Shown: piece after piece, positions 28,795 through 32,402 of the stretch
Position numbering within the stretch: position 1 is the stretch's first letter
How the letters are laid out: the number at the start of each line of letters is the position of its first letter
Assembly (NCBI GenBank): GCA_930980855.1
Contig: CAKNIZ010000001.1
Location: forward strand, 87,198 to 151,197
Direction of reading: 5' to 3'
From: an uncultured Clostridium sp.
GTDB lineage: Bacteria > Bacillota > Clostridia > TANB77 > CAG-508
DNA: 64,000 bases
Program-made: the position numbers and the translations under genes
The notes under the pieces: generated by a model
What the model was told of the DNA's origin: nothing
The model's database searches: none
The model's input: the letters and a program-made list of their open reading frames with translations, nothing else

Positions 28795-30084
28795 TTATTT
28801 TTTTGCTATTTTTGCGTTATCTACTATTAGTTTTATTGCTAAATCTGTTTTTGAAGATTCTTCTAAGTATGATTTTAAATCTTCATTTTTTTCTAGCTCT
28901 TCTACTTTTTTGTTATATTGTTTAGCCATTTCTTCTATTTTTTCTTTTACGTATTTTTCGTCAGCTTCTATTTTTTCATCTTTGATAATTTGTTCAAGAA
29001 CTAATCTTGATTTTACATTCTTTTCAGCTTGCTCTTTATATTCTTTTCTTAGGTCTTGTTCTGTTTTACCCATCATTTTTAAATATTGGTCTAAATTTAA
29101 TCCTTGATATTGTAATCTTTGATCAATATTTTGTTCCATATTGTCTATTTCTAATTCAATCATTCCTTCTGGAATATCTATTTTTGTATTTTCACATACT
29201 GCTTCTATTGCTGCGTCTTCTGTTTCGTGTTTTGCTCTTTCTTCATTTTCTTTTTCTTTCTTTTCTTTTATGCTCTTCTTTAATTCTTCAAGAGTATCAA
29301 ATTCACTAACATCTTTCGCAAACTCATCATCTATTTTTGGTAATTGTTTTTCTTTTATTGTATGTAATTTAATATGGAAAACTGCATCTTTTCCAGCTAA
29401 GTCTTTTGAGAAATAGTCTTCTGGGAATTTTACAGTTATGTCTTTTTCTTCATCTATTTTCATTCCAACTAATTGTTCTTCAAATCCTGGAATGAATGTT
29501 TTGCTTCCTATTGTTAATTCATGCTTTTCTGCTTTTCCACCTTCGAAAGCAACTCCATCAACAAATCCTTCAAAGTCTATTGTTACTATATCGCCATCTT
29601 TAACGGCTCTATCTTCAACTGTTACAATTCTTGAATTATGTTCTGCCATGTGATTTATTTCATGGTTAACATCTTCATCAGTTACTTTATATTCTATTTT
29701 CTTTAAAGGTATTTCTTTATATTTTCCTAATTTTACTTCTGGTTTTGTTGCAACTGTTGCTGTAAATATTAATTCTTTTCCTTTTTCCATTTGAACTATG
29801 TCTATTTGTGGTCTACTTGCAACTTCTATTTTATTTTTCTTTACTTCTTCATCATAAACAGTTGGTGCTAATTCATTAAATGCATCCTCATAAAAAATAT
29901 TATCTCCATAATATCTTTCTACTATTTTGAAAGGTGCTTTTCCTTTTCTAAAACCTGGAATGTTAAAGTATTTTGCACTTTTTTTGAATACATCCATTAT
30001 GGCTTCTTCAAATCTTTCAGCTTCTACTGTGAAAGTTAATTTTAATTCATTTTTATTTTCTGTTTTTTCTTGTTTTAAGCTCAT
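28795..30084 (-). CDS. tig: trigger factor
   Basis: The GFRKGKAP ribosome-binding motif and a PPIase middle domain are present. Confidence 0.9.
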   Translation of the reverse strand: MSLKQEKTENKNELKLTFTVEAERFEEAIMDVFKKSAKYFNIPGFRKGKAPFKIVERYYGDNIFYEDAFNELAPTVYDEEVKKNKIEVASRPQIDIVQMEKGKELIFTATVATKPEVKLGKYKEIPLKKIEYKVTDEDVNHEINHMAEHNSRIVTVEDRAVKDGDIVTIDFEGFVDGVAFEGGKAEKHELTIGSKTFIPGFEEQLVGMKIDEEKDITVKFPEDYFSKDLAGKDAVFHIKLHTIKEKQLPKIDDEFAKDVSEFDTLEELKKSIKEKKEKENEERAKHETEDAAIEAVCENTKIDIPEGMIELEIDNMEQNIDQRLQYQGLNLDQYLKMMGKTEQDLRKEYKEQAEKNVKSRLVLEQIIKDEKIEADEKYVKEKIEEMAKQYNKKVEELEKNEDLKSYLEESSKTDLAIKLIVDNAKIAKK

Positions 30085-30221
30085 TATTAATCCTTCCTTT
30101 TCTCATAAAATGCTATATTATTATATCACAAATTTTACATAAATCAAGGGGTTAACGCTAATTTGTAGAAACTAAATTAAAACTTTGTTACAATTTAGAG
30201 CAAGTATGAAATGCTTTAAAA

Positions 30222-30306
30222 TTGTATATTCAAAGATTTTTTGTTTCTTGCTGTCGGACGTAAAGTCCTCCAAACTGCGCGAAACTGCAAAATCTTGAAT
30301 ATACAA
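30222..30306. repeat. MITE-like palindromic element, family B copy 2
   Basis: Same terminal inverted repeats and conserved arms as 8913-9012. The central hairpin differs (GGACGTAAAGTCC). Confidence 0.7.
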
Positions 30307-30344
30307 TTGTATGAATTTAATAAGAAGCTGTGAATAGTAACTAT

Positions 30345-30917
30345 TTATCCTATTTTATTAGAAAATTTTAATTTTTTTTCATCAAATATTATTGATTTCG
30401 GTATTTTTTTTGACACTATTTTCACATAATTTAATATTAATTTTCTGCAATTATACCTTTTTAGCACACCTATTTGAGAATTTAATCTCTCTAAAATATT
30501 TTCCTGATTATTCTTATTAACTTGTTTAGCCTTAGTTATAACTCTAATAATTGTAGTTTTTTTCGGCTTTTGGTATCCATAAGGATATGAGACTTTTCCT
30601 AGAAAAGGAACTCCATGGCAACATCCTTCAACCAGTTCATTTTCTAGTATTTCCTCTATTTCGTTCATATAAAAGTGCTGAACAACTCTGTCACCAAATT
30701 GTGCAGCATATATTTCTCTTAAAGCTGGGTCTGTAACAACATAACAGTTAGATTGTTTTGGAATATATTTTCTTTGATTTAAGTTGTCCAATATTTCCAT
30801 TAAATTTTTGCATAATTCATCATTTACAAAACTGTATGTTCCTATTTTCCTTTTTTTATTCTTTAAGCAAGAAATATATGCTGCATATAATTCATCAAAT
30901 GTTAAATTATCTTCCAT
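30345..30917 (-). CDS. DGR reverse transcriptase, internally truncated (about 190 aa, lacks catalytic core)
   Basis: The N-terminus (FDELYAAYISCLKNKK..IYAAQFGDRVVQH) matches DGR RT motifs 1-2, and the C-terminus (LNSQIGVLKRYNCRKL) resembles the RT thumb. No YxDD or motifs 3-7 are present. The six-frame ORF 30345-30989 extends upstream through the TR. Confidence 0.65.
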   Translation of the reverse strand: MEDNLTFDELYAAYISCLKNKKRKIGTYSFVNDELCKNLMEILDNLNQRKYIPKQSNCYVVTDPALREIYAAQFGDRVVQHFYMNEIEEILENELVEGCCHGVPFLGKVSYPYGYQKPKKTTIIRVITKAKQVNKNNQENILERLNSQIGVLKRYNCRKLILNYVKIVSKKIPKSIIFDEKKLKFSNKIG

Positions 30918-30955
30918 AGCCAACCACTTCCTTAAAAATTTTAATATAATGAAAC

Positions 30956-31080
30956 TCGCCGCCAGACGCACGTAGTTAGTGTTGTTCACATTGTTGTTGT
31001 TAATGTTGCCGTTGTTAAAGTTCGCGTTATAAGCGTTGTTAGTATTGTTCTGCGAAGACGACCAGCACCACGAACTAAGA
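30956..31080 (-). repeat. DGR template repeat (TR)
   Basis: The 125-bp segment is homologous to 31337-31461. The coding (minus) strand is rich in AAC codons (NNTNNAYNANFNNGNINNNNVNNTNY). Confidence 0.85.
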
Positions 31081-31308
31081 TACTCAACAACCAGCCTGCC
31101 TATTTCTTTTATATATTTCTTGATTTATCTTTTTTGTGGCTTCGTCTATTTTTGTTTGAGTCCAATGATTTTTCTTTACTTTTTCTGTTTGCTCCATTTT
31201 TTTATTCTTTCTATACAATTTTTTAAATACTTGGTCAAACCAAAATCTTCTTACGAAGCTTTTTTCGGTTTGACCTTTCGCCCGTTATTTACATAACGTG
31301 CGATTTTT

Positions 31309-31336
31309 CTTTCTAATTTTTTACAAAATTAGAAAG
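31309..31336 (-). promoter_or_regulatory. hairpin immediately 3' of VR (DGR homing stem-loop candidate)
   Basis: CTTTCTAATTTT-TTAC-AAAATTAGAAAG is a perfect 12-bp stem overlapping the target stop codon. It is absent at the equivalent position next to the TR. Confidence 0.55.
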
Positions 31337-32402
31337 TCGCCGCCAGACGCACGTAGCGAGTGACGTTCACACCGTTGGTGAAAATGTTGCCGTAGGAAAA
31401 GTTCGCGATAAAAGCGGTGTCAGTATAGTCCTGCGAAGACGACCAGCACCACGAACTAAGACCGTAGTCGTCATAATTGCTTGACGTAATATTTAGTGGT
31501 TCTAGTACCTCTCCTCCAAATGCTGCCCATTCTGATCTTGATGGAACGAACCATCCTTTTTCTATTTTGCTTTTTCCATCTTCTTCTTTTGTCTGGATTA
31601 TTCCCCACATATCATTTGCATTTTGATTTCCGTATTCTGGTACATTCCAACTTGCTATCATTCTATTTGTATTTTTTCTTCCTGTTGGTTCCTCTCCAGC
31701 TTTTGCAAAGTCATTTTCTGTATCATCTACATTATACTGACTGTCTAAGTCTCCTTCTTTATACCAATAATGTGTGTTAGCATCAAAATCATCCAATGCC
31801 ATTACATAAAATCTTTCATTTCCTTGGCTTCCTTTTACTGGCGCTACTACTTTTCCAGTTCCAAAGTCATCTGTTACTTCCTCTTCTTTTACATAATATT
31901 CTTTAAATCTTCTCTCTACTGGAATTGTATAATCTCCCCAGTTATCTCCCCAATTTCCATCTCCAGTATTTCCTCTAGCTAGGTCCGCAAATATTATTCC
32001 ATCTACTGTTCCATTATCATCTATATCTGCATAATAGCATGTTCCACTTTCTGTTTCTGGAAATTTCTCTATTTCTACCCTTGTTCCTGTTATTTTTACC
32101 CCATTTACATACGCTGTTTTTCCTAATGCAATATCTTCTGGAGTTGCATTAGCATCAGATGTATCTAGTACTTCTAATGTTCCTGTTATTCCACCTATTG
32201 TTATTCCCTTTTTTATATTATTCGCTATTAAACTTGAATTTGTATTTTCTCCTGCTAAATAGTTTTCTACTTTTGCTTGTTGTTTTACTACTACATTTCT
32301 TATTAGTATACTTCCTATTATTATTACGATTAAAACTATTACTGTAATTAATATTATTAATCTCTTTTTCTTATCATCTTGCATTTTAATTTGTTTTTTC
32401 AT
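31329..32402 (-). CDS. DGR target protein: membrane-anchored, C-terminal C-type-lectin-like/DUF1566-like variable domain
   Basis: An N-terminal TM is present. The C-terminal GWFVPSRSEWAAFGG...SWCWSSSQ is followed by the VR (last 41 aa, ...RYVRLAATF). Confidence 0.8.
   Translation of the reverse strand: MKKQIKMQDDKKKRLIILITVIVLIVIIIGSILIRNVVVKQQAKVENYLAGENTNSSLIANNIKKGITIGGITGTLEVLDTSDANATPEDIALGKTAYVNGVKITGTRVEIEKFPETESGTCYYADIDDNGTVDGIIFADLARGNTGDGNWGDNWGDYTIPVERRFKEYYVKEEEVTDDFGTGKVVAPVKGSQGNERFYVMALDDFDANTHYWYKEGDLDSQYNVDDTENDFAKAGEEPTGRKNTNRMIASWNVPEYGNQNANDMWGIIQTKEEDGKSKIEKGWFVPSRSEWAAFGGEVLEPLNITSSNYDDYGLSSWCWSSSQDYTDTAFIANFSYGNIFTNGVNVTRYVRLAATF
31337..31461 (-). repeat. DGR variable repeat (VR)
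   Basis: Across the 79 variable positions, the TR and VR differ at 20 sites, and every one is a TR adenine on the coding strand. The flanking 46 bp are identical, and a GC-rich GTCTGGCGGCGA IMH-like box lies at the 3' end. Confidence 0.85.

Follow-up and report, generated by a model that had tools for sequence, protein, structure and literature searches.

Remnant of a diversity-generating retroelement beside a gene for a lectin-like protein in an uncultured Clostridium

Two closely similar 125-bp segments lie near one another in the window, the whole 64-kb stretch of an uncultured Clostridium chromosome analysed here, and the question they raise is whether they form part of a diversity-generating retroelement (DGR) that can still work. 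The repeats themselves and the hairpin that follows one of them are intact; however, the core of the reverse transcriptase (RT) is absent from its reading frame, and the window thus holds a DGR remnant rather than a complete DGR. As it stands, the cassette is unable to work on its own.

The template repeat (TR, 30956-31080) and the variable repeat (VR, 31337-31461), both on the minus strand, form a gap-free alignment in which the second copy is offset by 381 nt, at exactly the coordinates first reported for them. They differ at 18 positions spanning 74 nt (TR 30976-31049; VR 31357-31430, the variable core) rather than at 20 positions in a 79-nt stretch as originally counted, and of the identical flanks the one of 20 bp (30956-30975) stands while the other measures 31 bp (31050-31080) and not 26 bp. 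The claim that mismatches fall exclusively on coding-strand adenines of the first copy is borne out by realignment, as all 18 are T on the plus strand of the TR, and hence A on the coding (minus) strand. With 40 adenines among the 125 nt of the TR and 36 within the 74-nt span, the hypergeometric probability of 18/18 is 4.7e-11 for the whole TR and 1.2e-7 for the span. Just outside the pair, position 30955 shows a non-adenine difference (G for the TR, C for the VR) which is present in every conspecific copy. The TR is non-coding in its context; read in frame it is the Asn-rich string that had been described, NNTNNAYNANFNNGNINNNNVNNTNY, with 14 AAC and 2 AAT codons. All 36 adenines of the span occupy codon position 1 or 2, the 13 VR codons that have changed are all non-synonymous, and no stop codon can be reached from the TR by adenine mutagenesis.

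The VR forms the 3' end of the target gene (31329-32402, minus strand), a 357-aa ORF, and supplies its last ~41 codons, in agreement with the original prediction of a membrane-anchored protein: an N-terminal transmembrane helix is followed by a β-rich middle and a C-terminal C-type-lectin-like domain that contains the VR. In fold comparison, the best structural match of the C-terminus is the C-terminal domain of Legionella Lcl, a solved Lcl_C/DUF1566 member. The predicted lectin-like fold is upheld in this way; a match to the corresponding Pfam model is not, as Lcl_C (PF07603) stays below threshold on residues 284-353 (12.9 bits where the gathering score is 34.9; E 0.13).

The VR is followed immediately on its 3' side by a hairpin (31309-31336, minus strand), CTTTCTAATTTT-GTAA-AAAATTAGAAAG, with a 12-bp stem that includes the target stop codon, a 4-nt loop and a DNA fold z of -5.5. 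Every related cassette retains this hairpin, and in L005, L008 and L021 its stem shows compensatory changes. It is presumed to be a target-recognition hairpin or cruciform; the equivalent element is needed for homing in phage BPP-1 (PMC3240598). A GC-rich 3' end, CTACGTGCGTCTGGCGGCGA, is common to TR and VR and the hairpin then follows the VR only, so that both of the target-recognition elements of a DGR are found, although the stem here is AT-rich and the loop GTAA, where the published consensus has a GC-rich stem and a GRNA loop. The RNA fold of the TR region is no better than that of shuffled sequences (z +1.6), and no TR RNA structure is therefore claimed. Rfam returned nothing in or near the cassette, either for the whole window at gathering scores or for 30080-31340 at E <= 1; a sub-threshold match to a plant-virus pseudoknot was dismissed as chance.

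The RT is where the cassette fails. Its remnant (30345-30917, minus strand) is an open frame of 190 aa carrying a 564-bp in-frame deletion, and alignment to full-length homologues places the junction between 30617 and 30618, where residue 100 is fused to residue 289 of a 378-aa enzyme. Residues 101-288, which hold all catalytic motifs including IGNLTAQ and YVDD, are missing. The deletion was recognised from the lack of any RVT_1 match when Pfam was run on this ORF, while the RT of the conspecific metagenome-assembled genome (MAG) L001 is full-length at 378 aa and matches RVT_1 at 8e-17. The closest solved protein to this intact allele by sequence is Bordetella bRT (8ub7_A, E 3.4e-18), and the allele is, judged by its sequence, a DGR-type enzyme; an intact RT of the DGR clade thus adjoins the repeats in L001 but not in the window. 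Loss of the 564-bp segment during assembly is unlikely because the same junction sequence recurs in all RT-deleted contigs, whether the assembly is by metaSPAdes, by MEGAHIT or at scaffold level, and across many samples. Slippage by microhomology was considered, as TCATG occurs on both sides; however, the junction is offset from it by one base and no clean repeat-mediated mechanism can be claimed. An apparent in-frame bias among internal RT and accessory deletions was likewise set aside, given that protein-based sampling favours in-frame events and that those of L010 and L018 are out of frame. The 64-kb window contains no second RT by tblastn with four full-length RTs and no second VR by blastn with the TR.

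The accessory gene has also been deleted. What is left of it (31084-31197, minus strand) comprises 35 homologous codons (31093-31197), 2 out-of-context codons and a stop, and in tblastn aligns to residues 1-35 only of an accessory protein that is ~153 aa long in relatives and is encoded as a 153-aa gene in conspecific L048 as well. Codons 36-153 were lost in a deletion of ~350 bp between 11-bp imperfect direct repeats, with the junction at repeat copy 31093-31103; in L028, the ~350-bp segment that the window lacks is flanked by ATAGGCAGGCT and ATAGCCAGGCT. Pfam, NCBIfam and PDB profile searches of the accessory protein, with a 21-member alignment and with single members, gave noise only, and there is no sequence match to the model of the Avd/23S-rRNA-IVP family (PF05635). 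The protein is basic (pI 9.5), is encoded between target and TR and superposes on Avd; this fold comparison alone points to Avd, and a four-helix bundle of Avd topology is a candidate assignment for the protein. As avd is absent from some published DGR lineages (PMC5758913), loss of the accessory gene by itself is no proof of inactivity; it is the loss of the RT core that makes the strong argument. The working element that the original prediction implied is contradicted by an RT without residues 101-288, a putative accessory variability determinant reduced to 35 codons and the lack of another RT in the 64 kb.

Comparison with other strains demonstrates that the element did diversify within the species. 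L001 shares ~97% nucleotide identity and tig-clpP-clpX synteny with the window, and its TR is identical at 130/130 positions, while its VR differs at 24 positions, all of them TR-A sites. Wherever a conspecific contig has the complete TR, it is the same at 130/130 positions; the VRs differ from one another at 24-31 positions, and in one 90% cluster the 13 full-length members listed have 12 different VRs. It is therefore the VR and not the TR that varies between close genomes.

The VR of the window itself has the look of a frozen one. Its 357-aa target protein occurs unchanged in 56 indexed blocks of the assembly collection and on 56 metagenome contigs of several different studies; this points indirectly to present inactivity in this genome. 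The 190-aa RT remnant, too, is indexed without any change, in 77 such blocks. At least six ENA assemblies contribute to the eight distinct contigs (L026/L029, L027/L030, L031-L034) on which the VR is identical, and in L035-37 the VR differs by only 3 nt despite 0.35% divergence in the flanks. Most strains of the species have lost the RT core and the Avd gene and keep TR, VR and recognition hairpin perfect, and the doubly deleted cassette shows 0 mismatches in ~1250 nt among conspecific contigs. This cassette adjoins at least six unrelated VRs (L038, L043/44, L045, L040, L028 and the window type), and the unrelated VRs beside it are each confined to 1-3 contigs.

Decay is not limited to one event. 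The RT of L048 contains two nonsense codons, L049 and L040 carry other deletions which remove the TR, and L028 has an internal deletion in the accessory gene; the accessory deletion of L040 has the alternative version of the repeat at its junction and is for that reason independent. Altogether, six different lesions are seen in one species. Cassettes of other species have decayed as well, through an insertion in L002 and deletions in L010, L018, L022 and L024.

The adenine-only pattern of TR/VR differences recurs in 17 homologous cassettes of other Clostridia, and the cassette family extends over 25 GTDB species of gut Clostridia, with 588 metagenome homologues of the accessory protein and 1031 of the target protein; one related MAG, BRZ_HP__bin8, holds two cassettes of the family (L002 and L005). 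A published survey found ~70-90% of DGRs to be chromosomal (PMC5758913). Chromosomal DGRs are common in gut Clostridia, and the suggestion that one would be unusual in a Clostridium-like chromosome has to be given up in light of these figures. Zero matches to the TR 3' end were found among the viral contigs scanned, hence no phage carrying the TR, and L038 was the only contig with the TR end among the JGI metagenome contigs scanned. The neighbouring tig, clpP, PDDEXK, metallophosphoesterase and tsaD genes adjoin the cassette in conspecific L001 only and in no other species, indicating that its location is not conserved across species. The identification of the repeats as a DGR TR/VR pair is sustained by the adenine-only changes, the VR variation among conspecifics, the 17 homologous cassettes, the hairpin and the lectin-fold target together.

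The reading we prefer, at a probability of roughly 70%, is that of a chromosomal DGR aimed at a lectin-like surface protein, the machinery of which was disabled by two deletions, so that the VR can no longer change unless the enzyme comes from another source. On the minus strand the cassette reads target (VR), hairpin, avd-like gene, TR and RT. By homology with the Bordetella phage paradigm, the TR of the intact form would be transcribed, and the RT together with the Avd-like protein would copy it into cDNA, misincorporating opposite template adenines. The cDNA would then replace the VR, with the GC-rich 3' end common to both repeats and the hairpin that follows it presumably serving as guides. 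Homing of this kind could randomise up to 18 codons (14 AAC, 2 AAT, 1 TAT and 1 TAC), which would lie in the ligand-binding face of the C-type-lectin-like domain of a membrane-anchored surface protein. In this genome, the RT has lost its catalytic core (finger and palm) to the 564-bp in-frame deletion, and the accessory gene its codons 36-153 to the ~350-bp deletion, with TR, VR and hairpin left intact. With both genes disabled, the 18 adenine-site differences would be the record of a past homing event. Most likely, then, the DGR in this genome is a locked relic.

Other explanations fare less well to very different degrees. The chance that the repeats arose by plain duplication and divergence, or form a gene-conversion tract, without a retroelement taking part is negligible: direct repeats of such a size can arise by duplication, and nothing more specific speaks for it, whereas adenine specificity and the comparative data refute it. 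Every one of the 18 substitutions is at the same base type of one of the copies (p ~5e-11), the changed codons are all non-synonymous with changes at codon positions 1 or 2 only, the same pattern is seen at 17 homologous loci beside RT genes, and between strains the TR is invariant and the VR hypervariable. It is very improbable that the DGR is fully functional and autonomous, with RT activity provided by the 190-aa ORF or a nearby gene. That frame is open, its exact sequence recurs in 77 assembly-collection blocks, and TR, VR and hairpin are intact; yet the ORF lacks every polymerase motif and an RVT_1 match with the removal of residues 101-288 (IGNLTAQ and YVDD), the accessory gene is truncated, and tblastn finds no other RT in the window. 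A less probable but credible reading is that the cassette is non-autonomous and nonetheless active, with RT and Avd acting in trans on its TR, VR and hairpin from another locus of the genome, in a second DGR or a prophage, so that the VR keeps diversifying. The Bordetella avd, TR and brt do work when expressed in trans (PMC5758913), two family cassettes coexist in BRZ_HP__bin8, the TR and hairpin are perfectly conserved, and the dead cassette stands beside at least six unrelated VRs, each on 1-3 contigs. Against such supply, the exact VR protein is shared by 56 contigs from several studies, the VRs of L035-37 are nearly the same despite their 0.35% flank divergence, no second RT lies within the 64-kb window, the species-representative MAG has one RT match of the family in a genome scan, and the TR end is on no viral contig scanned. 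Conservation of the TR is no evidence of selection either, as the pseudogene parts are equally conserved across the whole cassette.

The variety of VRs beside one dead cassette has to be accounted for under the preferred reading of a locked relic too. If the RT deletion arose once, the other VRs either came about later, with RT in trans, or were joined to it through recombination. The latter, drawing on standing variation, is favoured: the mosaic SNP matrix indicates that recombination is frequent here, divergence is 0.9-1.6% to the left of the VR against 0-0.35% to the right, and the RT deletion of L043/44 sits on an allele with 12 clustered SNPs. That the species carries an 'orphan' TR-VR module still hypermutated by an RT/Avd pair elsewhere in the cell is doubtful; if true, it would mean that the enzyme and the template/target module are separable and exchangeable. 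A related and more modest possibility is that natural selection has time and again inactivated the RT and thereby 'locked' a favourable VR.

As a DGR the element is ordinary, since chromosomal DGRs with DUF1566-type lectin targets are known and are abundant in gut Clostridia. Its added value is a natural allelic series in one species, in which each cassette type has a different VR: accessory gene intact with RT nonsense codons, RT intact with the accessory gene deleted, both deleted, or TR deleted, along with one doubly deleted clone that shows a single VR across many human samples. Such a series suits the questions of whether DGR activity is switched off once a useful variant has been found, how long VR diversity outlives the enzyme, and whether TR/VR modules can be driven in trans. 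Detectors that call DGRs by the TR/VR pattern alone will count dead elements, and the accessory protein of this clade (588 homologues) escapes current Avd sequence models.

Among known systems, the closest in layout is the DGR of Bordetella phage BPP-1 (mtd-avd-TR-brt; architecture B1, Wu et al. 2018), which has the same order of target (VR), accessory gene, TR and RT. The two share adenine-specific differences and AAC codons, a GC-rich 3' end common to TR and VR, a 4-nt-loop hairpin after the VR, and a basic accessory protein (pI 9.5 here) that superposes on Avd and may be its counterpart; among solved proteins, bRT is the nearest to the intact RT allele. Unlike the phage-borne element, this one is chromosomal and lies beside housekeeping genes, and its target is a membrane-anchored bacterial protein instead of a tail fibre. 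Its hairpin has a 12-bp AT-rich stem and a GTAA loop in place of a GC-rich stem of 7-10 bp and the GRNA consensus, its accessory protein of ~153 aa has an extra N-terminal helix and no Avd model match, and in the window RT and accessory gene are both deleted. On the side of the target, the comparison is with the Legionella pneumophila DGR and the category 'd' targets (DUF1566, DUF823, Fib_succ_major; CLec2 VRs), a class which makes up 14% of DGRs in a survey (PMC5758913). There, too, the VR lies in a C-terminal DUF1566/Lcl_C-type lectin-like domain of a cell-surface protein; however, the target described here is no lipoprotein but is anchored by an N-terminal transmembrane helix, in a host of the Gram-positive-type Clostridia, its Pfam Lcl_C match is below threshold (E 0.13), and the cassette had no MSL accessory gene noted next to it. 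In the Treponema denticola DGR, the fold of TvpA is of the FGE-sulfatase subtype; that of the present target is of the Lcl_C subtype.

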